Shown here: positions 1 through 9,795 of the stretch, piece by piece
Layout: each line of letters opens with the position of its first letter
Numbering within the stretch: the stretch's first letter is position 1
Virus record (IMG/VR): IMGVR_UViG_2778261533_000002
Coordinates: 1 to 9,795 of that record
DNA length: 9,795 nucleotides
From: a virus
Taxonomy: Duplodnaviria > Heunggongvirae > Uroviricota > Caudoviricetes
Direction: 5' to 3' (one strand)
Position numbers and translations under genes: made by a program
Notes under the pieces: model-generated
Databases searched by the model: none
Seen by the model: only the letters and a program-made list of their open reading frames with translations
Told to the model about the DNA's origin: nothing

Positions 1-235
1 CATGACAAGGTCATCGGGCATTATCTGAACATAAAACACTATCAGTAAGTTGGAGTCATTACCAAGCTATAGATGATAGAAAAATTGGAGCGGCAATGTA
101 TATATTTTCTAGCCATAATGGGTTTTCTACAATCAAGTATCCAAAAGGTATTAAGTATATTATAGCCAATAGTTGAAGGTTTTTTAATTTGGATGATGCG
201 TCAACCAACTTATTTTTATATTCCATACAACGTCC

Positions 236-1309
236 TTATTTCAACTTTAACGCCAAATCTTCAGCTTTTGGATGATAATACCGCATTAGCATTCTTGGAT
301 CTTTATGTCCTGTAATTTTGGTCAGTTCATGCATAGGGAAAATTTCAGCAAGTCGAGAAGTTGCTTCATGTCGAAGGTCATGAAATCTTAAATCTTTAAG
401 GAATGATTCATCACATAATGAGTTTGTTTTCTCGTATCGTTCTCTGGCTCGTTTTACAGCTCGGTCAAAAGCTCGGGTAATCGCGTCTGCACGCATATCA
501 AAAACCTTATCAGCAGCTGGCTTAGAATGTTCCTTGAGACTGGACAGTATCGTGATGGCTTTCGTTGATAAAGGGACATCGCGGGCATTACCATTCTTAG
601 TATCCGGCAGATGTGCAACTCGCCGATCAAGATCGATAAAGCGCCATCGAAGCTCTGCGATTTCGCTACGGCGCATGGCTGTCTCTAACGCCAGAAGAAT
701 GATTGCTGGCAATACTAATGAATGTGTTGCGGCGATGATATGTTCGATCTCGTTGGCTATTTCCTTTCCTGACGTAACACCGGTTTTCTCAGAAACTACA
801 GGCAGCGCTTCCAGGCGTCTGGTCCTGGAGTTCTTGGGTTGAGGTTTGCGAATGGCCTCTACGGGGTTCAGCAGGCTCTCCATGCCCCATTCTTTCCGCG
901 AAACGTTGAATACATGAGAAAGTAAGGCCAAACGCCTTAAAACGGTTGCAGGGGCATAGATTTTCAACCATTCATCTCTCAGCTTGGCGACATCGGCACT
1001 CCTGATGCTGGCCATATAGTTTTTCGCCAGCTGAGTGCCTTTTAGTATCCGCACCAATGATCGGTCTTGCACTGCCCCTTTTTTGTCGGGAACAATCTCT
1101 TTTTCATATCGCGTTAGGGCTTCATACAATGTCGTAGATTCCGCTTCGCTGCGGCTAAGCCAAACTCCTCTCGCCATTTCTGACTCGATCATTTTGGCCC
1201 AAGCTTCTGCTTCTACTTTGGTGTTAAAGGTTTTGGTTTGAGAGGGAAAACCTCGTTTACGGATTTGAGCTTCCCATTGGTAGTTACCACGTTTGCGTAT
1301 AGTCGCCAT
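236..1309 (-). CDS. Tyrosine-type site-specific integrase of element A
   Basis: Open frame 236-1339 on the minus strand. The track start at 1339 is TTG; the in-frame ATG at 1309 (MATIRKRGNYQWEAQIRKRG...) is the more likely start. C-terminal catalytic signature of tyrosine recombinases is present: RFHDLRHEATSRL and the tyrosine in MRYYH. Stop at 236-238. Confidence 0.85.
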   Translation of the reverse strand: MATIRKRGNYQWEAQIRKRGFPSQTKTFNTKVEAEAWAKMIESEMARGVWLSRSEAESTTLYEALTRYEKEIVPDKKGAVQDRSLVRILKGTQLAKNYMASIRSADVAKLRDEWLKIYAPATVLRRLALLSHVFNVSRKEWGMESLLNPVEAIRKPQPKNSRTRRLEALPVVSEKTGVTSGKEIANEIEHIIAATHSLVLPAIILLALETAMRRSEIAELRWRFIDLDRRVAHLPDTKNGNARDVPLSTKAITILSSLKEHSKPAADKVFDMRADAITRAFDRAVKRARERYEKTNSLCDESFLKDLRFHDLRHEATSRLAEIFPMHELTKITGHKDPRMLMRYYHPKAEDLALKLK

Positions 1310-1397
1310 TTCTGTCTGATTCCTAACGAACTGTGGCAATATTGTGGCAAAAAATCCATTTAAATTCGATAGGTATTGATTTTACAAGATCAATTTA

Positions 1398-1446
1398 CGC
1401 ATTCGTAATGCGAAGGTCGTAGGTTCGACTCCTATTATCGGCACCA
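1398..1446 (+). other. Attachment-site core: 3'-terminal 49 nt of a tRNA-Thr(CGU) gene (thrW-like), including the T-arm, acceptor 3' strand and CCA; not a complete tRNA
   Basis: CGCATTCGTAATGCGAAGGTCGTAGGTTCGACTCCTATTATCGGCACCA folds as anticodon stem-loop (anticodon CGT), variable loop, T-arm (TTCGACT loop) and acceptor 3' strand plus CCA. The upstream sequence does not supply an acceptor 5' strand or D-arm. Identity to E. coli thrW is recalled from memory. Confidence 0.8.
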
Positions 1447-1460
1447 TTTAAATCAATAAG

Positions 1461-2624
1461 TTACACATCATTAGTACCTTCCTTATTTTTTGACTGGGAC
1501 GAATTTGGGACCGATGGGTTCAGGATCGAGTCTATTTGCCGTGCGTGTTCGGTAAGGTGATTAGGTGCAAGGTGAGCATATCGACGAACCATTTCGATAG
1601 ACTCCCAGCCTCCCATTTCCTGTAACACTGACAACGGGACTCCGGCTTGAACCAGCCAACTTGCCCAGGTGTGTCTCAAGTCGTGAAATCTGAAATCATC
1701 AATACCAGCCCGTCTCAGCGCCGCTTTCCAGGCTGTGTTTGCGTCATACCGCATCTTCCTTACTGTTGGCGCTTTCGTTCCGTCTGGTTTGGTACAGCTT
1801 TCCTTGTACACAAATACCCAACGGTGATGATTCCCGATTTGTTTTTTCAAAACGCGACATGCAGTATCATTCAGCGCAACGCCAATTGCGCGGTTTGATT
1901 TACTCTCTTCCGGGTTTATCCATGCCACCCGGCGCTGCATGTCTATTTGTTGCCATTCAAGGTTGATGATGTTCGAGCGTCTTAAGCCTGTTGCCAGTGC
2001 AAATTCAACAACAGACTTTAATGGCTCCGGACATTCATCAATCAGCCTTTGTGCTTCATGGGGCTCCAGCCAGCGGATCCGTTTATTCTTTGGTTGAGGC
2101 ACTTTAATAATTGGTGCCTTATCCAGCATTTTCCATTCACGCTCTGCGGCTCTTAGTAGGGCCTTTATAAATGAAAGATGCGTAGCCTTCGTTGCAACGG
2201 ACGCTGGTTTTGGCGTGTATTCTGGAACAGGTTTCCCTTTTTTTCTGCATGCTTCTGCCCTGAGTCTCCAGTTTTCCTCATGACGCCGGTTCGTCATTTT
2301 CTGCATTGCTGAATAAATTTTTGATTCAGTAATGTCTCTTAGTTGCATTCCTGCGAAATGTTGAAGCCAGAATCCGATCCGGCTTTTGTCATCGTCCAGT
2401 GATTTTTTATGTGCTTTCTCTTCAAGCCACCTGACACACGCTTCCTCGAACGTTATATCAGGTATTTCACCAAGTTTGCTGACCCGCCATGCTTCAGCCT
2501 TTAGCTTGTCATGGAGTTCTGTCGCCTGCCTTTTGTCCTTTGTTCCAAGAGACTGTTTAAATCTTTTACCGTTCGGCAATGTGAAACTGGCGTACCATAT
2601 TTCACCTCTGCGGAAGAGTGACAT
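1461..2624 (-). CDS. int: Phage integrase, P22 Int-like tyrosine recombinase (387 aa)
   Basis: ATG at 2622-2624 ([14 protein letters not shown]...), stop at 1461-1463. Catalytic motifs [14 protein letters not shown] and VRRYAHL are present. Length and N-terminus match my recollection of P22 Int, which integrates at thrW. Confidence 0.9.
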
Positions 2625-2851
2625 TTTCTTTCCTCTGTTATGCCATCACCCGCGCTCACCTGGACAGTATGCAGCGGAGACTGAAGAGCCGCAATGCAGG
2701 CTTGTCGTGTTGTGAGGTAAGGAGATTTATTCTTAGTGGGATCTTTGCGTGTTGCCTGAAGACGCCCTGTGCGTATCCAGTTAATGGCAGTCGGTCTGGA
2801 TATCTTGAGAAAATGACAGGCCTCATCGAGTGTGAGGCTGTATGGCTCCAT
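2501..2851 (-). CDS. xis: Excisionase (Xis), 116 aa, helix-turn-helix
   Basis: The track ORF 2501-2935 is an upstream extension. The internal ATG at 2849-2851 ([31 protein letters not shown]...) gives a 116-aa product and overlaps the stop of the upstream gene by 1 nt (TAATG). The 3' end overlaps int by 124 nt in another frame. The position upstream of int and the HTH-like segment fit an excisionase. Confidence 0.75.
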
Positions 2852-3156
2852 TATTTCACCTCTTGCTGTGACATTGTTGAAAAATGGATACCAGCTCGTT
2901 GCTGCCAGACGATCCAACCGAGAGTCATATCCCATGCCATGTATTCGTTATCGCCGTTTTTTGCTCTCCGACGATCTACTAAGTTACCGAAACGCTTTTC
3001 CATGAATAATTCATAAGCTTCGCGTTCATCTGGTTCTACTTCCAGAGATAGGAGTGCGATTTCATAAGCACGGCGCTCAATATCGTCTCGCACGTCAAGG
3101 CTGCTGATACGCTCTTTAATTTCTTTAATCAGTTCTTTGTCGGTAAAAGTGGTCAT
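2851..3156 (-). CDS. Hypothetical phage early protein (101 aa)
   Basis: ATG at 3154-3156 overlaps the stop of the upstream gene by 1 nt (TAATG), and its own stop overlaps the xis start by 1 nt. Acidic, helical-looking sequence with no recognisable motif. Confidence 0.6.
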   Translation of the reverse strand: MTTFTDKELIKEIKERISSLDVRDDIERRAYEIALLSLEVEPDEREAYELFMEKRFGNLVDRRRAKNGDNEYMAWDMTLGWIVWQQRAGIHFSTMSQQEVK

Positions 3157-3518
3157 TATGCTCCAGCCTCCGGTGCTTTTGGCATTACTGCCCAGTGAGT
3201 GATATTGACGTTTTCAAGGTCCCCGACCTGAAATGTCCACTGCCATTCTCCGGTTTCTTTTTGTCCCCAGGTGTACCAGAGAGAACGCCAACCAATTAGC
3301 CAGCCTTCTCCGTTAGCATCGAATAACAAAACACTTTCATTTGCTGGTGGCAGTTCAGTTGACACTGGTATTACTTTGTTTTCCTGTGCTGCACATTTAG
3401 CTTCAAGCGCATCGAATTTACGCACCAGGTATTCAGCATCTGTTTCATTTACTTTCAGATCTCGCGGTACACATCTCCCACGAAGAAACCCTTCCATTTC
3501 GAAAACATTCATGCGCAT
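3156..3518 (-). CDS. DUF551-like phage protein (120 aa)
   Basis: ATG at 3516-3518 is preceded by GGAG at an appropriate distance. The C-terminal segment WQWTFQVGDLENVNITHWAVMPKAPE resembles the conserved THWMPLPEPP end of DUF551 proteins, as I recall the family. First gene of the leftward operon. Confidence 0.65.
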   Translation of the reverse strand: MRMNVFEMEGFLRGRCVPRDLKVNETDAEYLVRKFDALEAKCAAQENKVIPVSTELPPANESVLLFDANGEGWLIGWRSLWYTWGQKETGEWQWTFQVGDLENVNITHWAVMPKAPEAGA

Positions 3519-3973
3519 TTGCGTAACTCCGATAACTCGTTAAAGCGTTCCATAAACATCCCGTAACAGACAACAGGGCAGAGAACGGTGCTGTCTTTTT
3601 CAGTTTGAGAGTGGCGGTGTTAGTTTCTCCACAAAACAGAGAAGAACACCTGCGGTGGCAGCCGCCCGGATGGATTGGGTTATGAGCCCGTCGTCCGGTG
3701 ATGCTCTTCTCTGTTTTGTAAAAAGAGCGGTACCAGCCGGAAGCAAGTGTACAAACTGGTACCGCCAAAGCAGTGGCTGTTGTGGTGACCGGTGCTGATC
3801 TCCGGCTTGCGGTTATTTCAGACTCTCACGGGCGTTTAATTGCCCCGCCGAACAGCTCTTTTCCGCAATAGCTGCAATGTCTTTCGCGCATCAGTCTGCG
3901 CATTCACCACAACGCTGAGAGCACTTAGCCAGTTATCTATCCGAAAGATTAACAGAACACCTTCAATTTTTAA
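3519..3973. promoter_or_regulatory. Divergent control region between the leftward (int/xis) and rightward operons; contains two large inverted repeats and no ORF
   Basis: Imperfect palindrome with 18-bp arms (3631-3648 and 3702-3719, 17 of 18 complementary) separated by 53 bp. Immediately after, a perfect 10-bp inverted repeat GCGGTACCAG/CTGGTACCGC (3727-3736 and 3756-3765) with a 19-bp spacer. A hairpin followed by TTTTT lies at about 3566-3600. Promoter hexamers were not confidently assigned. Confidence 0.4.
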
Positions 3974-4057
3974 CCACAGAACGATGAGGCTAACCGCAAT
4001 GCGTCGAATGTTTATCAGCTTAACGTTGCGAAGCTTCAGGCAGCGGCATTTTCTCAA

Positions 4058-4212
4058 CTGTCAGATTCTGACCCGTCAAAATCTGACGCATCAAAATCTG
4101 ACCCGTCAAAATTTGATGCGTCGAAATCTGGCAAAAAAGCGGGTTTTCACCCGTCAGAATCTGGCGGGGATCCGTCAGTAAAATCAAAACATGATCCGTC
4201 AGATAAAAAACC
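4058..4212. repeat. Tandem 15-bp repeats, consensus cCGTCAAAATCTGAc: five contiguous units (4058-4132) plus three degenerate CCGTCAG-initiated copies (4151, 4172, 4196)
   Basis: Direct reading: ctgtcagattctgac / ccgtcaaaatctgac / gcatcaaaatctgac / ccgtcaaaatttgat / gcgtcgaaatctggc. The period is a multiple of 3 and sits in an open frame, where it encodes DPSKS/DASKS-type pentapeptides. Confidence 0.8.
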
Positions 4213-4330
4213 TTCTCGTCCGGACGCTTCGCAACCGGACACGCAGACGGCTGAACAGGATTTTTTAACTCGCCATCCTGATGCGGTTGTATTCAGCCCT
4301 AAAAAGCGCCAGTGGGGGACGCAGGATGAT

Positions 4331-4699
4331 TTGACCTGCGCACAGTGGCTCTGGAAAAAAATCATCGCCCTGTACGAGCAGGCTGCCGAATGTGACGGCG
4401 AGGTGGTTCGTCCCAAAGAACCGAACTGGACAGCCTGGGCAAACGAAATTCGCCTGATGTGTGTGCAGGATGGTCGTACTCACAAACAAATCTGCGAGAT
4501 GTACAGCCGCGTCAGCCGCGATCCGTTCTGGTGCCGTAACGTGCTCAGCCCGTCGAAGCTGCGGGAAAAATGGGATGAGCTTTCTCTGCGCTTATCGCCG
4601 TCCGTCAGCACGTACACAGAAAAACGCGAAGACCCGTACTTCAAAGCCAGTTACGACAATGTGGACTACAGCCAGATCCCGGCAGGATTCAGGGGGTGA
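4331..4699 (+). CDS. DnaT-like (primosomal protein I C-terminal domain-like) phage replication-associated protein; coordinates are from the first canonical start (TTG), but the frame is open from 3974
   Basis: The C-terminus ...DNVDYSQIPAGFRG matches the characteristic C-terminal end of E. coli DnaT (...SEPDSQIPPGFRG, from memory). Stop at 4697-4699, immediately before the SD (AGGGGG) and ATG of the next gene. The same frame is stop-free for 119 codons upstream (3974-4330) with no ATG/GTG/TTG, so the 5' extent is unresolved. Confidence 0.6.
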   Translation: MTCAQWLWKKIIALYEQAAECDGEVVRPKEPNWTAWANEIRLMCVQDGRTHKQICEMYSRVSRDPFWCRNVLSPSKLREKWDELSLRLSPSVSTYTEKREDPYFKASYDNVDYSQIPAGFRG

Positions 4700-4701
4700 G
4701 C

Positions 4702-5190
4702 ATGAGTCTTTTGAATGACGTTCAGAAATTCATTGAAGCCCATCCGGGCTGTACTTCCGGAGACATTGCGGATGCTTTTGCAGGTTACTCACGGCAGCGC
4801 GTTCTGCAGTCAGCAAGCAAGTTACGTCAGAGTGGGCGTGTGGCTCACCGTTGTGAAGGAGATACACACAGACATTTCCCGCGCCTGACTGAGAGAGCGC
4901 AGGATCCGGAACCACAACCAGTTCGTGAAACCAGACCTGTGCGCAATTTCTATGTCGGCACTAACGACCCGCGGGTGATTTTGTGCCTGACCCGCCAGGC
5001 GGAAGAACTGGAGTCCAGGGGCTTATACCGTCGTGCTGCAACGGTGTGGATGGCGGCATTCCGTGAAAGCCACTCCCAGCCAGAACGAAACAATTTTCTG
5101 GCGCGTCGTGAACGGTGTTTACGGAAAAGCAGTAAGCGGGCTGCATCAGGTGAAGAGTGGTATCTCTCAGGGAATTACGTGGGGGCTTAA
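4702..5190 (+). CDS. PerC-family-like transcriptional regulator with an N-terminal winged-helix-like region (162 aa)
   Basis: ATG at 4702 sits 5 nt after AGGGGG; the track GTG at 4696 is less likely. The C-terminal motif AEELESRGLYRRAATVWMAAF resembles the LE.GLWRRAA.RW core I recall for PerC/Pch proteins. Stop at 5188-5190 overlaps the next start (TAATG). Confidence 0.6.
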   Translation: MSLLNDVQKFIEAHPGCTSGDIADAFAGYSRQRVLQSASKLRQSGRVAHRCEGDTHRHFPRLTERAQDPEPQPVRETRPVRNFYVGTNDPRVILCLTRQAEELESRGLYRRAATVWMAAFRESHSQPERNNFLARRERCLRKSSKRAASGEEWYLSGNYVGA

Positions 5191-5843
5191 TGAGTAATAA
5201 ATATTGCCAGGCGCTGGCGGAACTGCGGAACAAACCAGCCCATGAACTGAAGGAAGTGGGCGATCAGTGGCGCACGCCGGACAACATTTTCTGGGGAATT
5301 AACACTCTGTTTGGCCCGTTTGTTCTGGATCTGTTTACTGACGGTGATAACGCCAAATGTGCTGCGTATTACACGGCGGAAGACAACGCGCTGGCGCATG
5401 ACTGGTCAGAACGCCTTGCGGAGCTTAAAGGTGCTGCCTTTGGTAATCCCCCATACAGCCGCGCCAGTCAGCATGAGGGGCAATACATCACCGGCATGCG
5501 TTACATCATGAAGCATGCCAGTGCCATGCGTGATAAAGGCGGGCGCTATGTTTTCCTGATCAAAGCTGCCACCAGCGAAGTGTGGTGGCCGGAAGATGCA
5601 GATCATATTGCTTTTATTCGCGGGCGTATTGGTTTTGAACTGCCTGCCTGGTTTATCCCGAAGGATGAGAAGCAGGTGCCGACAGGCGCTTTCTTCGCTG
5701 GTGCTATTGCTGTTTTCGACAAGACCTGGAAGGGACCGGCAATCAGCTACATCGGGCGCTATGAACTTGAGGCATGTGGTGAGGCCTTTCTGGCGCAGGT
5801 TCGCCAGCAGGCAGAAAAACTGGTCAGGGAGATGGCGGCATGA
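5190..5843 (+). CDS. Phage Dam-type DNA N6-adenine methyltransferase (217 aa)
   Basis: ATG at 5190 is preceded by GGGGG and overlaps the upstream stop; the track GTG at 5157 is less likely. Motifs [10 protein letters not shown] and FGNPPYS (catalytic NPPY) fit the small phage Dam family found in T1 and lambdoid nin regions. Stop at 5841-5843 overlaps the next ATG (ATGA). Confidence 0.75.
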
Positions 5844-6154
5844 CGACGTTAACTCAATGCCAGCAGCAGGTGCTGGATATGCTGATTTCTTATCAGAAAG
5901 AACGTGGCTTCCCGCCAACCAATCAGGAGGTGGCAACCATGCTGGGATGCATGGCCCGTCTGAAAAAGAACAACAGCGATTTGCACGATTTATTAGTAGA
6001 TTATTATGTAGGTGGTATGACGTTTATGGCGCTTGCCCGTAAACATGGGCGTTCTGATTGCTGGGTTGGGCGCTTATTGCAAAAGGCAGAAGGCATCATT
6101 GAAGGTATGTTGATAATGTTAGAAATAGAATTGGAAATGGACTCAAATATCTAG
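5840..6154 (+). CDS. Q-like late antiterminator (QuuD/21-type short Q) with an atypical LexA-like N-terminus (104 aa)
   Basis: ATGA-coupled to the MTase. The C-terminal two thirds ([35 protein letters not shown]...AEGIIEGML) resemble my recollection of the DLP12 QuuD antiterminator. The N-terminal 36 aa ([33 protein letters not shown]) instead resemble the LexA N-terminal DNA-binding helix pair. The last 20 codons lie in AT-rich sequence. Confidence 0.5.
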
Positions 6155-6281
6155 AAAGATATTTTATGAGTATCTGGATTTTTAATTTGTATTGTTAGCA
6201 TGAAATTAAGGAGGGTGGACTGTTTGTGCTTTATATTAATGTTTTTGTGGGGATTTAATAACCACTGATTTATTTGAGGGT

Positions 6282-6316
6282 GGCGCTAATGTACAAGGTT
6301 TTTAGTAATTAGCGCC
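6282..6316 (+). terminator. Possible intrinsic terminator or hairpin downstream of the Q-like gene
   Basis: Perfect 9-bp inverted repeat GGCGCTAAT/ATTAGCGCC with a 17-nt loop, followed on the plus strand by a U-rich tract (tgctggtttgttattttatttt). It lies 11 nt past the stop of the convergent minus-strand gene, but that strand has no U-run after it. Confidence 0.3.
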
Positions 6317-6326
6317 TGCTGGTTTG

Positions 6327-7778
6327 TTATTTTATTTTGCTTACTATATTTGTAATAAGTGGGTCAAATTTCTCATCAATAATTTCAATATATTTTTTAA
6401 TTGCTAAAGTTCTAATTACTTCCTCCTCACATTCTGCTTCTTTAGCAATTGCTTGAGTGTAATTGTGATGATCACTAATCCCTTCCTTTTTTATTAACCA
6501 ATCAAAATCAATATGATACTCCTTGTAGAGGAATTTTTTTACTTCCTCATGTTGAAATACTTCTACTTCTGGTGGCCTATTGCCAGGGAAAGAAAATAAA
6601 TCATCTTTAATGTTTTCTCCAACATCTGCATCTCTTACGGCAATAACATTAAGGCCTGCTTTCTTGAATACCTCGACTGCTTGTCGGACTGCATCTTTAT
6701 CTCCAATATCAGTGATTTGAATGGATTTAAGAATGTCTCTCCGCTTTGCTCTAATTACTTCACTAAGTAAAACTTTTGCAAACTGGTCTTCTACGCAAAT
6801 ATGCAGCCCTTTAAACTGCCCATCAGACAGTATTGATCTCACATGAGTTGTTGAAATTCCATCTTTGATATAGACACCAGTCTGATCTCTAATAAGTAAT
6901 TTTCGTGCATCAGGAGGTAAAGCATTTAATATCACACTTGAGTGTGTTGATAATATTATTTGATGTTTTCTACGTTGACATACTTCCATTAAATATTTTG
7001 CAAATTCATACTGTGCGCTTTCATGAAGAGATGTTTCTGGTTCTTCTAGTACGAAAAGACTTTGCTCTGGAGCTGTTTCAAGCATATCAACCGTATAAAG
7101 AACTCTTCCTTCGCCAAACCCCATGTTATTTTCAGAATAAGAATACCCAAGTCTTTCAACAATACCAATTTCTGAACGACGTGCTCTATGAGAAATTCCT
7201 TGGAATGCGATATCATCATATGGATGACCTATTATTTTTGCCATCTTCAATATTACTGAATGGTCGACGCTTCTTCTCTCTGTTAAATCAAAGTCTTTAC
7301 CGCCATAAACACTTATATCTCTACGTTCTACTTTTGGAATATAGACAGTAAAACCAATGTAAAAACAGTGTCTTTCTGGTTGTCTTTTATATCCAGACCA
7401 AGAAGACTTTATGCGAGTGACAGTCACATCTTGTGTTTTCGTTGAATCATTTGTTTCATATTTATAAATGACACTGGCGTCATTATCGAAAGGGGCTGGA
7501 TCGGCTTTAGATACAGGGAAAAAATCTTTAATATATAATCTCTTATATTCACGGGCTGTAACTGGTTTTTTATATGCGCATATTGCTAACTGCCCAAGAG
7601 TGCTTTTCCCAGCGCCGTTTAGCCCTGATATTGCAGTTACCGGAAAATTTATATTTAATGTTAGTTTTTTTATTCCTCGAAATCCATTTATCTCTAGACT
7701 TTTAATTACGGAGCCAAAGTTTGAGTATCTATTTTTATCAAAGTACATGCATTTTAGTATATTTTTTATGTCTGACAT
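6327..7778 (-). CDS. ABC-type ATPase fused to a Toprim-like nuclease domain; OLD/PARIS/Gabija-like candidate anti-phage defence protein (483 aa)
   Basis: ATG at 7776-7778 has AGGAAAG upstream and an in-frame TAA two codons before it. Walker A GLNGAGKST (about aa 52-60, read directly from the DNA as GGG CTA AAC GGC GCT GGG AAA AGC ACT). Walker B plus D-loop LFVLEEPETSLH (about 241-252). H-loop ILSTHS (about 275-280). C-terminal Toprim-like signature: CVEDQFAKVLL (Glu about 330) and, about 55 aa later, AVRDADVGE (DxDxG, about 383-387). Confidence 0.7.
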   Translation of the reverse strand: MSDIKNILKCMYFDKNRYSNFGSVIKSLEINGFRGIKKLTLNINFPVTAISGLNGAGKSTLGQLAICAYKKPVTAREYKRLYIKDFFPVSKADPAPFDNDASVIYKYETNDSTKTQDVTVTRIKSSWSGYKRQPERHCFYIGFTVYIPKVERRDISVYGGKDFDLTERRSVDHSVILKMAKIIGHPYDDIAFQGISHRARRSEIGIVERLGYSYSENNMGFGEGRVLYTVDMLETAPEQSLFVLEEPETSLHESAQYEFAKYLMEVCQRRKHQIILSTHSSVILNALPPDARKLLIRDQTGVYIKDGISTTHVRSILSDGQFKGLHICVEDQFAKVLLSEVIRAKRRDILKSIQITDIGDKDAVRQAVEVFKKAGLNVIAVRDADVGENIKDDLFSFPGNRPPEVEVFQHEEVKKFLYKEYHIDFDWLIKKEGISDHHNYTQAIAKEAECEEEVIRTLAIKKYIEIIDEKFDPLITNIVSKIK

Positions 7779-8043
7779 TTTTTATCTTTCCTGATATGAA
7801 TGAGAGTTATCTTTAGAAAAACAATAAATTTATAACATTTAGAGATGTATTCATCAATGATTGGGTAAATATCGTGCATTTGTTGTTTTAAAATCAACCA
7901 AGAATGATTTTTATAATTATGTCAATTGCCTTATTATCAATATGGTAATGTTTTCTCAATCTAATTATTGGGGGGGAATATATTATTTACAATCGTAAAT
8001 AATCAGATATGCTCTCAAGAGTGGTTACTTCGCCACACAACTT

Positions 8044-8069
8044 AAACCCGCCGTCGAGCGGGTTTTTTT
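8044..8069 (+). terminator. Rho-independent terminator (plus strand)
   Basis: aaacccgc-cgtcga-gcgggttt hairpin (GC core CCCGC/GCGGG) followed directly by a T run of 7 (8063-8069). It marks the right edge of the AT-rich island. Confidence 0.65.
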
Positions 8070-8191
8070 GTACCTGTAAACCTGGTGCAGTACGGTAAAC
8101 ACGCTGGTGGTCGTGAATACTGACTTTTTATCTTGCTGGCTTTTTAGACAAGAGTTATTGGTATGTCATGTTAACCAGAAGGAAAAAAGAC

Positions 8192-8386
8192 ATGTTAAAA
8201 CAGCAAGATATGACAGAAACGGCGAAAGTTGTTTTTAATGAATTAAGCATCGAACCGGCAACAGTCGGGGAGATTGCACAAAACACATATCTTTCACGCG
8301 AACGCTGTCAGTTAATACTGACCCAGTTGGTTATGGCGGGGCTGGCAGATTACCAGTTCGGCTGTTACAGACGCCTTCAGCTATGA
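8192..8386 (+). CDS. Small winged-helix DNA-binding protein (64 aa), possibly PapI/FaeA-like
   Basis: ATG at 8192 lies 8 nt after AGAAGGA; the track ATG at 8168 lacks an SD. The segment ATVGEIAQNTYLSRERCQLILTQLVMAGLA has the spacing of an HTH recognition helix followed by a wing, comparable to PapI as I recall it. Confidence 0.55.
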   Translation: MLKQQDMTETAKVVFNELSIEPATVGEIAQNTYLSRERCQLILTQLVMAGLADYQFGCYRRLQL

Positions 8387-8535
8387 AGGACTTTTAATTT
8401 GTGAAAATGGGCGGCTGGTGGGTGTTGGTAGCACCTGCCAGCCATTCGCTCATGCTTACTGGTCACAAGCGAACCACGGCCCACTGCTTTAGCGCAAAAG
8501 CAGAGTGAGCCTACCAGAGTTACGCTTACTGATCC

Positions 8536-9588
8536 ATGAAAAATACTGTAAAAATAAACAGTGTTGATTTAATCAACGCTGATTGCCTGCATTTTATTCA
8601 GTCCCTGCCTGATGATTCCATTGACCTGATTGTTACCGATCCGCCGTACTTCAAGGTGAAACCCAACGGTTGGGACAATCAGTGGAAAGGGGACGAAGAT
8701 TACCTTAAGTGGCTGGACCACTGTCTGGCCCAGTTCTGGCGGGTGTTGAAACCTGCCGGAAGCCTTTACCTGTTCTGTGGGCATCGCCTGGCATCTGATA
8801 TTGAGATCATGATGCGTGAACGTTTCAACGTGCTTAACCATATCATCTGGGCGAAGCCGTCCGGACGTTGGAATGGGTGTAATAAAGAAAGTCTGCGCGC
8901 ATATTTTCCTGCCACAGAGCGCGTTCTGTTTGCTGAACATTACCAGGGGCCATATCGCGGCAAAAGTGACGGCTATGCGGCAAAAGAAAGGGAACTCAAA
9001 CAGCACATAATGGCACCGCTGATATCGTATTTCAGGGATGCTCGTGCCGAACTGGGTATAACGGCAAAACAAATTGCCGAAGCCACAGGTAAGAAAAATA
9101 TGGTTTCCCACTGGTTTGGTGCCAGTCAGTGGCAGTTGCCGAATGAGGCTGACTATCGGAAGTTACAGGCACTGTTTTCCCGTATAGCGGCAGAGAAGTT
9201 TCAGGAACAACAACTGGAACAACCACACCACCAGCTGGTGGCATCTTATGATTCACTGAATCGCAAATATTCTGAATTGCTGGATGAGTTTAAATCTCTC
9301 CGGCGCTATTTCTCCGTATCAGTCTCCGTGCCTTATACCGATGTCTGGATGCATAAACCCGTTCAGTTCTACCCGGGTAAACATCCGTGTGAGAAACCGG
9401 CGGATATGCTCAGGCAAATAATCAATGCCAGTAGTCGACCTGGTGATCTGGTTGCTGATTTTTTTATGGGATCCGGTTCCACAATAAAAGCAGCAATGGC
9501 GCTGGGGCGTCGGGCCTTAGGTGTTGAGCTTGAGTCAGAGCGGTTTAACCAGACAGTGAAAGAGATAAACGAGCTGGTGGGGAAATAA
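8536..9588 (+). CDS. DNA methyltransferase, beta-class N6-adenine/N4-cytosine type (motif IV before motif I), 350 aa; no cognate endonuclease in the window
   Basis: N-terminal [12 protein letters not shown] (catalytic DPPY) and C-terminal [17 protein letters not shown] (AdoMet-binding FxGxG). The central target-recognition region contains an HTH-like segment ([12 protein letters not shown]). A GATC sits immediately 5' of the ATG. Confidence 0.85.
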
Positions 9589-9594
9589 TCTGGT

Positions 9595-9620
9595 GGCCAC
9601 GTCAGGTGGCCTTTTTATTT
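9595..9620 (+). terminator. Rho-independent terminator after the MTase, in the position of a late-region tR'-like terminator upstream of the holin start
   Basis: ggccac-gtcag-gtggcc hairpin (9595-9611) followed by TTTTTATTT (9612-9620), 7 nt after the MTase stop and 36 nt before the holin-like ATG. Confidence 0.65.
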
Positions 9621-9655
9621 CCATTACACAGCACCCGCATCTGCGAGGTGGGGTT

Positions 9656-9784
9656 ATGAAATCCATGGATAAGTTAACAACGGGTGTCGCCTATGGCACC
9701 TCAGCAGGTAGTGCCGGGTACTGGTTTTTACAGTTTGAACCGTCCCGGGAATCCTGGAGACTAAACTCCCTGAGAAAGAGGTAA
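9656..9784 (+). pseudogene. N-terminal remnant of an S21/EssD-type pinholin (dual-start MKSM motif and first transmembrane/SAR segment only)
   Basis: ATG at 9656 is preceded by [33 protein letters not shown] matches the first 26 residues of phage 21 S as I recall them. The frame then diverges ([16 protein letters not shown]) and stops at 9782-9784, and no frame in the remaining window encodes a second TMD. A new RBS-ATG (AAAGAGG, ATG at 9789) follows. Confidence 0.45.
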
Positions 9785-9795
9785 ACAGGATGACT

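Follow-up and report, generated by a model that had tools for sequence, protein, structure and literature searches.

Why the 3′ end of a tRNA gene, without its 5′ half, should lie between two integrase genes is the question raised by this locus. The window (the whole stretch of DNA that was analyzed, 9,795 nucleotides, positions 1 to 9,795 of the virus record IMGVR_UViG_2778261533_000002) holds the two genes on either side of a 49-nt tRNA fragment, and an earlier note, made from the sequence alone, had read this arrangement as a hybrid attachment junction produced by tandem integration. All the positions it gave were found to be correct. Our analysis shows that the region is very probably the internal junction of a tandem array, in which two independent integrative elements, A on the left and B on the right, occupy the 3′ end of the thrW gene.

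The core of the junction (1398–1446, plus strand; CGCATTCGTAATGCGAAGGTCGTAGGTTCGACTCCTATTATCGGCACCA) corresponds exactly to thrW over its 3′ 49 nt, tRNA positions 28–76, and comprises the anticodon loop, the T arm, the 3′ acceptor strand, and CCA. It was aligned with the intact thrW genes of E. coli TUM10008 (locus L001, 1696–1744), 26561, and ATCC 43886; all 49 nt were identical, and 100–200 shuffles gave no chance match. ARAGORN identified the intact gene as tRNA-Thr with the anticodon CGT and detected no tRNA in the whole window, so the 5′ half of thrW is absent here, and the assignment of the fragment to the 3′ end of a tRNA-Thr(CGU) gene was borne out. The base preceding 1398 is A in the window and G in thrW. 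The last 46 nt of the core (1401–1446, plus strand) form the P22/SfIV-type core, the same 46 bp as in P22 attP, and an attP of 46 bp is given for SfIV, SfI, and SfV (PMC3851460). The 23-bp ‘attP core’ of P22 (NC_002371, 21300–21322) maps to 1408–1430 (plus strand), entirely within the retained tRNA fragment.

To the left of the core, intA (236–1309, minus strand) encodes the 357-aa tyrosine integrase of element A. The start codon (ATG) is 88 bp away from the core and the gene is read leftward from there, in the orientation described earlier. IntA matched the Pfam family PF00589 (Phage_integrase; E = 1.6e-26, profile positions 6–170 of 172) and the PHROG 1 integrase (E = 2e-49); its best phage relatives reached only about 39% identity, and a PDB sequence search with IntA gave no match. 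In the pairwise alignment with IntB, the integrase of element B, identity was only 30% over 244 aa. The tyrosine recombinase residues (R, K, H-x-x-R, H/W, Y) were visible in both proteins, in IntA as R..K..HxxR..H..Y within the segments AMRRSE, TKNGNARDV, HDLRH, GHKD, and RYYH, and in IntB with RRYAH among its catalytic segments. Among 5426 complete E. coli genomes, intA was carried by 95, as a single chromosomal copy in all of them.

The P arm of element A (1310–1397) contains the upstream region of intA and forms the element-derived side of A's attR. At all A-bearing loci examined it lay directly between intA and the core, independent of the right-hand neighbour. A promoter and terminator scan of 1150–1650 returned nothing, including no sigma-70-like promoter for intA in the P arm. 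Within this arm a direct repeat, GTGGCAA-N4-GTGGCAA (1333–1350, plus strand), occurred once in the window against 0.01 expected. Across 16 loci and more than 400 kb, exact matches to this repeat were confined to the terminal regions of element A, where they lay some 83 bp in from the left end or 48 bp short of the right-end core, and all had one orientation. This distribution suggests that the repeats are candidate arm-type sites for IntA.

Beyond intA, the window holds only a stub of the next gene of element A (59–226, minus strand), which was reduced by an IS1 insertion to 55 codons; the gene encodes 296 aa when intact, as at L001 19273–20163. The stub matched PHROG 26661 over positions 1–54 of 296, and its exact 55-aa product was found in 218 assembly-collection blocks. 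IS1 interrupts element A 170 bp beyond intA, and its terminal inverted-repeat end occupies the left edge of the window (1–63), with the IS1 transposase gene just beyond in loci of the same allele. This segment, which we take to be the IS1 end itself, accounts for the tens of thousands of matches that the window has, spread over nearly all E. coli genomes. In relatives, element A measures about 12–33 kb and carries higA, traJ, trbJ, trbL, vbhA, and variable anti-phage cargo together with IntA. The earlier note spoke of a resident prophage; element A is not a prophage but an island of the integrative type, which bears traJ/trbJ/trbL and a varying set of defence genes.

To the right of the core, positions 1447–1460 form the start of the P′ arm of element B, which reaches from the core to the intB stop codon and runs on into the 3′ end of intB. 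These positions were identical to the sequence after intact thrW in two loci with B only (L002 and L003). The intB gene (1461–2624, minus strand; 387 aa) has its 3′ end toward the core, with the stop codon 14 bp away. IntB was identical to P22 Int at 347 of the 387 residues (90% over the full length), in agreement with the initial P22-type reading, and showed 99.5% identity to SfIV Int. Its match to PF00589 was strong (E = 3.5e-48, profile positions 1–171 of 172), and a PDB sequence search gave distant matches to HP1 Int and Xer only. The adjacent xis gene (2501–2851, minus strand; 116 aa) shares 124 nt with intB, the same overlap as in P22. Xis was identical to P22 Xis at 101 of 116 residues (87%) and matched the PHROG 2907 excisionase (E = 1e-50) and the HTH_17 domain. 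Neither reading frame is broken in the window, both proteins are orthologous to those of P22, and the 46-bp thrW 3′-end core adjoins the int 3′ end as in the P22/SfIV-type layout. Element B is lambdoid, a prophage whose int-xis-attP module is of the P22/SfIV type. The copy in the window is without about 7 kb present in the ATCC 43886 prophage, the immunity region included, and is cut by an IS3-family element. As A is interrupted by IS1 and B is both shortened and IS3-cut, the present-day mobility of either element is doubtful.

Comparison with complete E. coli genomes identified both flanks of the core. The sequence to its left was the end of element A in all 95 genomes with intA, and the sequence to its right was that which follows intact thrW in the B-only strains (L002, L003). 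The middle junction is thus P(A)-core-P′(B), as had been proposed, and all four arm types were matched in related genomes: the thrW-P′(A) junction reads GGCACCA followed by TCTTTT(A/C)T..., and the junction of P(B), core, and native flank reads ...GGATTCTTATA + core + TTTAAATCAAGTAGTTACCCC. In TUM10008, which showed 99.6% identity to the window across 64–3000, the order was proA-thrW-A(19.6 kb)-core-B-core-LysR′/paoD. The intact tRNA gene had been expected beyond the left end of element A, and in close relatives it was there, 19.6 kb to the left of the junction in TUM10008 and 33 kb to the left in NCTC9038. In the latter strain, as in others, A is of the window's IS1-marked allele and stands alone, with the native flank directly after it. 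At the proximal end of the array, intact thrW was located at L001 1669–1744, L006 866–941, and L015 35485–35560, all in close relatives.

A third core copy at the right end of element B, another feature to be looked for, was present in relatives at L001 40291–40336 and L003 48120–48165, preceded by the other arm of B. At the distal core of L001, P(B) stood before the core, and behind it lay the flank that follows thrW in strains with an empty site. A search with the 49-mer at up to 3 mismatches missed the TUM10008 copy, because the arm of B replaces the first 3 nt and there is one further mismatch; a 30-mer/46-mer search recovered L001 40291–40336.

Empty, single, and double configurations were all found, as the suggested comparison with related strains had anticipated. 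The thrW site was empty in 955 of the 5426 genomes. Element A alone occurred at L007, L008, L013, and L015, and B alone at L002 and L003, with clean att junctions. Where B alone lay beside intact thrW, it was bounded by 46(+2)-bp direct repeats 45.7 kb apart, and a 46-bp repeat flanked B in ATCC 43886. The exact junction of the window (thrW-A-core-B-core) was present in 17 genomes, and the reverse order (thrW-B-core-A-core), with the reciprocal junction P(B)-core-P′(A), in 42; UPEC85 was verified for the latter, with B-core-A-core-paoD. The locus had been described as an integration hotspot holding at least two elements, and thrW is indeed a well-known one. The best coverage of the window by any complete RefSeq E. 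coli genome was at most 84%, and an exact-protein look-up with the IS1-truncated stub product found many genomes with the same allele and none with the same B.

The most probable account of these observations is the following. Elements A and B each target the 3′ end of thrW by their own tyrosine integrase, giving the array thrW(intact)-A-core-B-core, of which the window carries the middle core. The attR of A consists of its P arm and the displaced 49-nt tRNA 3′ end; the attL of B uses the same fragment as its core, followed by the P′ arm and intB. The middle core is attR of A and attL of B simultaneously. Each Int presumably catalyses conservative recombination inside the shared core, and either element could still excise alone, leaving the other behind. 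For the genome of the window, the outer two sites are predicted from the close relatives.

Could the two halves be a single composite element with two integrases, in which the tRNA fragment is an internal relic and no working boundary? The integrase genes are only 151 bp apart and travel together at more than 99% identity in 17 genomes, as such an element would have it. However, each half occurs alone with clean att junctions, the opposite order exists in 42 genomes, and the two integrases share only 30% identity; the single-element and reverse-order genomes have already refuted this reading in practice, and we regard it as extremely improbable. The same low probability is given to the reading of the fragment as native thrW, its 5′ half lost when A inserted into the gene or deleted part of it, in a strain without an intact thrW at this site. 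The window indeed has just the 3′ 49 nt and no detected tRNA, but the sequence to the left of the core is the conserved end of A and not the proA-thrW spacer, and an intact thrW lay beside proA at the other end of A in every related A-bearing genome examined, those with the IS1 allele included.

The array might also have been imported ready-made or re-assorted by homologous recombination, over large segments or between core copies or flanking homology, rather than built by two integrations in this lineage. The same IS1-marked A allele (identity 99.4–100% over the part of window 1–1447 matched at each locus) stands beside at least four right neighbours, namely the native flank, two B variants, and a further element, and segment exchange explains this variety as readily as repeated integration and excision. 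An inverted core copy in strain E54 also shows that rearrangement takes place within the array. Such a course is unlikely, and it would alter the history and not the nature of the feature, as the arms meet precisely at the core, without added bases, and the junction must still have arisen from site-specific integration. The preferred reading remains two independent integrative elements in tandem at thrW. The earlier claim that one element entered the att site of a resident is correct, but the order of arrival of A and B is not deducible from the junction, because both histories give the same one. The extent of identity (49 nt against 46 nt) was considered as a guide to this order and rejected, since both histories predict the same middle junction.

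In RefSeq, the stretch equivalent to window 1335–1446 is recorded as a ‘tRNA-Ser’ of 112 nt in almost all A-bearing E. coli genomes listed. ARAGORN found no cloverleaf in these 112 nt, the Rfam family RF00005 scored 22.3 bits, below its gathering score of 29, and over 1372–1439 only, and the fold was no more stable than that of shuffled sequence (z = −1.03). A real chimeric tRNA made of P(A) and the core was rejected on these three results, and the RefSeq ‘tRNA-Ser’ at this place is a recurrent annotation error.

The closest known case is Shigella flexneri, where experiments showed SfI to enter thrW beside a resident SfX, at the attL of the latter, and form a tandem (Sun et al. 2011, PMC3306764). 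The tRNA gene beside proA is the same, the integrase family is the same (with the 99.5% match of IntB to SfIV Int), and so is the array structure, in which att cores separate the two elements and close the array on both sides. In that case both partners are phages, whereas here the partner of B is a non-phage island. The SfI and SfX integrases are probably closely related, since the SfIV paper describes Int as conserved between SfI and SfIV, and SfX also uses thrW, while IntA is only 30% identical to IntB. IntA would recognise a slightly longer tRNA stretch (49 against 46 nt), and intA, which points away from the core, occupies the other end of its element. With P22 (NC_002371), element B shares Int (90%), Xis (87%), the identical 46-bp core, the 14-bp spacing between int and core, and the 124-nt int/xis overlap. 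The rest of B differs: it is lambdoid and CPS-53-like (yfd genes) and not a P22-like podovirus, the tail genes in relatives being of the siphovirus type, and the relatives examined carry no gtr O-antigen genes beside the att site.

Element A resembles PIMEs, integrative mobilizable elements of Pseudomonadota with alpA and repA as core markers (bioRxiv 10.64898/2026.01.12.698999). Its relatives combine an integrase with traJ, trbJ, and trbL but have no complete type IV secretion system, and its large variable region is full of immune systems, such as retron Ec78, an ABC-three-component system, and a pPIWI-associated nuclease. The A copies examined have no annotated alpA or repA, in a comparison that covered the genes named in the annotation. 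Other islands and prophages at thrW (CP4-6 of K-12, PAI III-536, and the APEC Vat/Tsh island; PMC7545054) share the hotspot from proA to pao/yag, but they have other integrases and cargo and are array neighbours, not relatives, of A or B. Directly after the core of A in NCTC11023 comes a CP4-6-like island. Tandem prophages at thrW are described in O157:H7 (PMC9997748), and thrW is among the most used tDNA hotspots (PMC7545054).

A further proposal is tentative. The 49-nt fragment at the end of the IS1-crippled and effectively fixed element A may serve as a working secondary attB, away from any functional tRNA, which P22/SfIV-type prophages repeatedly enter and leave; such traffic would explain the variety of right-hand neighbours (native flank, two B variants, a further element) of one IS1-marked A allele. 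If this is true, decayed islands would make lasting landing pads and multiply the capacity of the hotspot. Separately, A may represent an undescribed thrW-specific, PIME-like branch of defence islands with GTGGCAA-N4-GTGGCAA arm sites.

Integration in tandem at thrW was known before, and for SfI and SfX by experiment; the finding is real but ordinary, and the locus opens no new question. Two unrelated integrases have come, by convergence, to use overlapping cores at one tRNA 3′ end, which lets their elements stack in either order, and array order at thrW should not be taken as arrival order. The junction accounts for the recurrent 112-nt ‘tRNA-Ser’ error and marks the boundaries by which the variable defence island and the prophage can be correctly delimited. 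The locus is a clean worked example of one tRNA gene gathering several mobile elements.

The 49-nt stretch at window 1398–1446, CGCATTCGTAATGCGAAGGTCGTAGGTTCGACTCCTATTATCGGCACCA, matched exactly the last 49 nt (positions 28–76) of the intact 76-nt E. coli thrW gene. The intact genes were taken from strains TUM10008, 26561, and ATCC 43886, and ARAGORN identified thrW as tRNA-Thr with a CGT anticodon. Of the tRNA, the match took in the CGU anticodon loop with the 3' part of the anticodon stem, both the variable and the T arm, and the 3' acceptor strand with CCA. The base preceding 1398 was unlike thrW, ARAGORN called no tRNA gene in the window, and the Rfam tRNA model scored 22.3 bits on it, below the threshold of 29. 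Window 1398–1446 is therefore a 3' fragment only, which agrees with the earlier note's reading of a tRNA-Thr 3' end without its 5' half. The 46-nt P22-type core was contained in the 49-nt core of element A, the integrative island to the left, and the P22 genome annotation gives a 23-bp core, which fell at window 1408–1430, entirely within the kept fragment.

Integrase genes flanked this core in the orientations first described. The 5' end of intA (236–1309, minus strand; tyrosine recombinase, 357 aa) faced it, with the start codon 88 bp away, and the 3' end of the P22-type intB (1461–2624, minus strand; tyrosine recombinase, 387 aa) approached from the right, with the stop codon at 14 bp. The excisionase gene xis (2501–2851, 116 aa) shared 124 nt with intB, precisely the overlap found in P22. 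IntB showed 90% identity to P22 Int and 99.5% to Int of Shigella phage SfIV, and the excisionase was 87% identical to P22 Xis. IntA and IntB shared only 30% identity across 244 residues, and the nearest phage relatives of IntA were about 39% identical. All three genes were intact in the window.

Sequences on both sides of every 46-nt core copy were compared in 16 related loci, and four arm types recurred. P'(B), TTTAAATCAATAAGTTACACATCATTAG..., leads to intB and followed the intact thrW in strains carrying only element B, the lambdoid prophage on the right (L002 and ATCC 43886). P(B), ...GAATTAGAAGCGGATTCTTATA, stood ahead of B's distal core copy; in P22 attP an identical 46-bp core is preceded by the identical TTCTTATA. 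P'(A), TCTTTTATAATAAAATCATC..., followed the intact thrW where A adjoins the tRNA. P(A), ...GTGGCAATATTGTGGCAAAAAATCC...GATCAATTTA, preceded the core at the right end of A; in each of the 95 complete E. coli genomes with intA, it adjoined that gene without a break. The window junction was P(A)-core-P'(B), so that the core is simultaneously attR of A and attL of B; the proposed hybrid att junction is thus borne out by the arms. A GTGGCAA-N4-GTGGCAA motif was present at window 1333–1350; it precedes the core by 48 bp and lies 24 bp upstream of the start codon of intA. Its exact matches in the related loci (>400 kb) were all in the terminal regions of A, at either end and in a single orientation. 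From this placement we infer candidate arm-type IntA binding sites.

The further core copy and the intact tRNA predicted outside the window were found in related genomes. TUM10008, with 99.6% identity to window 64–3000, had the order proB-proA-thrW-A(19.6 kb)-core-B-core-LysR'/paoD. Its third core, at the right end of B (locus L001, 40291–40336, one mismatch), had P(B) ahead of it and the thrW flank of empty-site strains behind it. NCTC9038 carried A only: the core of A was joined directly to native chromosome, and the intact thrW stood at the left end of A, at a distance of 33 kb. ATCC 43886 carried B alone, between two copies of a 46(+2)-bp direct repeat lying 45.7 kb apart. Of 5426 complete genomes, 955 had the empty site, with thrW joined to its native flank; E. 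coli B and C are two of these. The exact window junction was present in 17 genomes. The reverse junction, P(B)-core-P'(A), was commoner among complete E. coli genomes (42, with UPEC85 at L016, 20001–20186); UPEC85 showed a lambdoid prophage, core, a 13.9-kb copy of A, core, and paoD, in that order. A and B therefore stack in either order. The E54 group of A-B strains, in which a genome can hold as many as four core copies, also shows inversion or rearrangement within the thrW array: one additional core was inverted (L006, 27828–27873, minus strand) and another had a 1-nt deletion (39131–39160), with an IS66 element, Avs2, and integrase fragments between the two.

Lambda-family tyrosine integrases bind their own arm sites and exchange DNA strands across a short overlap that lies in the shared core. 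IntA and IntB would each act in this way, and a second element entering at either core copy would produce an array. The integrating element brings its own copy of the tRNA 3' end, which keeps the tRNA whole on the proximal side and leaves a fragment displaced distally. As the P22 23-bp core lies wholly in the kept fragment, A's attR gives B's integrase a complete core. Entry into the att site of a resident element, as the earlier note proposed, is upheld in the structure of the junction; which element was resident is not told by it, since A entering the intact thrW of a B lysogen and B entering A's attR leave the identical middle junction. The extent of identity (49 nt or 46 nt) did not discriminate between these histories. 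In the SfI/SfX experiment, the incoming phage was at attL of the resident phage (PMC3306764). A single IS1-marked A allele adjoined at least four different right-hand neighbours, which fits turnover at A's attR and fits homologous segment exchange equally well. The experiment and the IS1-marked allele point in opposite directions on arrival order.

Element A is not a prophage, contrary to what had been supposed. Its copies (L001, 1745–21334; L004; L005, 828–12498; L006, 942–14512; L015; L016, 20117–33950) had a constant backbone of higA, traJ, trbJ, trbL, vbhA, a 296-aa gene, and intA, with thrW-proximal cargo that differed between strains. TUM10008 had DUF4297/coiled-coil, HNH+ATPase, and pPIWI-associated nuclease, whereas NCTC11023 had retron Ec78, NCTC9038 an ABC-three-component system, and A23 a dynamin-family protein. 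The cargo also included a PD-(D/E)XK nuclease and DUF4365, the latter together with the pPIWI-associated nuclease. A behaves as a mobile defence-island scaffold. PIME integrative mobilizable elements carry int, traJ, trbJ, and trbL with immune systems (2026 preprint, bioRxiv 10.64898/2026.01.12.698999). A resembles these elements, but alpA and repA were not annotated in its copies, and it is therefore not classed as a PIME member. Window 1–63, which we take to be an IS1 end, cuts the 296-aa gene beside intA to 55 codons (window 1–226), and the same shortened product is widespread. In NCTC9038 this IS1 is part of an insertion of some 16 kb inside A (L015, 3232–21419), flanked by IS1 and holding a polysaccharide synthesis/export cluster with undecaprenyl-phosphate glucose phosphotransferase, a GumC-like protein, glycosyltransferases, and galE. 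The same insertion was seen in many other genomes.

Element B is a lambdoid prophage. Its early genes are CPS-53-like (yfdT, yfdS, and others), and its integration module is of the P22/SfIV type. Relative to the intact-looking ATCC 43886 prophage, the window copy was without yfdR-yfdQ-yfdP, the XRE-repressor/cro-like/ymfL immunity region, and the LexA-like/RusA/KilA-N/DUF968 block, about 7 kb over three gaps (window 3565–5948 against L003, 4606–13905), and is probably defective. An IS3-family (IS1203/IS629-like) end in the last 60 bases (~9736–9795) interrupts an essD-like holin gene starting at 9657. The window array is probably a decaying remnant, and IS copies at both edges suggest a short-read contig or an IS-rich strain. 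Six tandem copies of a 15-bp period (TCAAAATCTGACCCG-like) with internal inverted repeats lay at 4046–4168, within a replication-initiator-like gene region, and also in ATCC 43886 (L003, 9396–9518); they look like lambdoid origin iterons. A 483-aa ATPase gene (6327–7778, minus strand; Pfam AAA_15/AAA_21/DUF2813; PADLOC HEC-04, E=3.9e-47; RefSeq 'ATP-dependent nuclease') stood by itself on the other strand, with the Q-antiterminator region on one side and the methyltransferase and lysis genes on the other, and is a candidate prophage-borne anti-phage gene. Two methyltransferases looked orphan (5157–5843, Dam-type; 8536–9588, N6_N4).

In almost all listed A-bearing genomes, RefSeq annotates a 112-nt 'tRNA-Ser' across A's P arm and the thrW fragment (window 1335–1446; L001, 21272–21383; L015, 2012–2123); in NCTC11023 the label is 'tRNA-Thr' (L004, 12436–12547). 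ARAGORN made no call on this feature, Rfam gave the same 22.3 bits against 29, and its fold was no better than that of shuffled sequence. A systematic false positive is the probable explanation, to which the anticodon and T arms, both intact, and a chance ATTGAT-N8-ATCAAT hairpin (1375–1394) would contribute.

thrW is listed among the tDNA sites that integrating elements use most often in E. coli (PMC7545054). Tandem prophages are reported there in O157:H7 (PMC9997748), tandem integration of SfI and SfX at thrW has been reproduced experimentally (PMC3306764), and a 46-bp attP is published for SfIV, SfI, and SfV (PMC3851460). The tandem array in the window is thus a known kind of structure, correctly recognised in the earlier note. 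The small additions are that the RefSeq tRNA-Ser/tRNA-Thr label on the hybrid site is unsupported by ARAGORN, Rfam, and folding, that both array orders occur naturally, and that B is partnered by a defence island that is not a phage and whose integrase is only distantly related.
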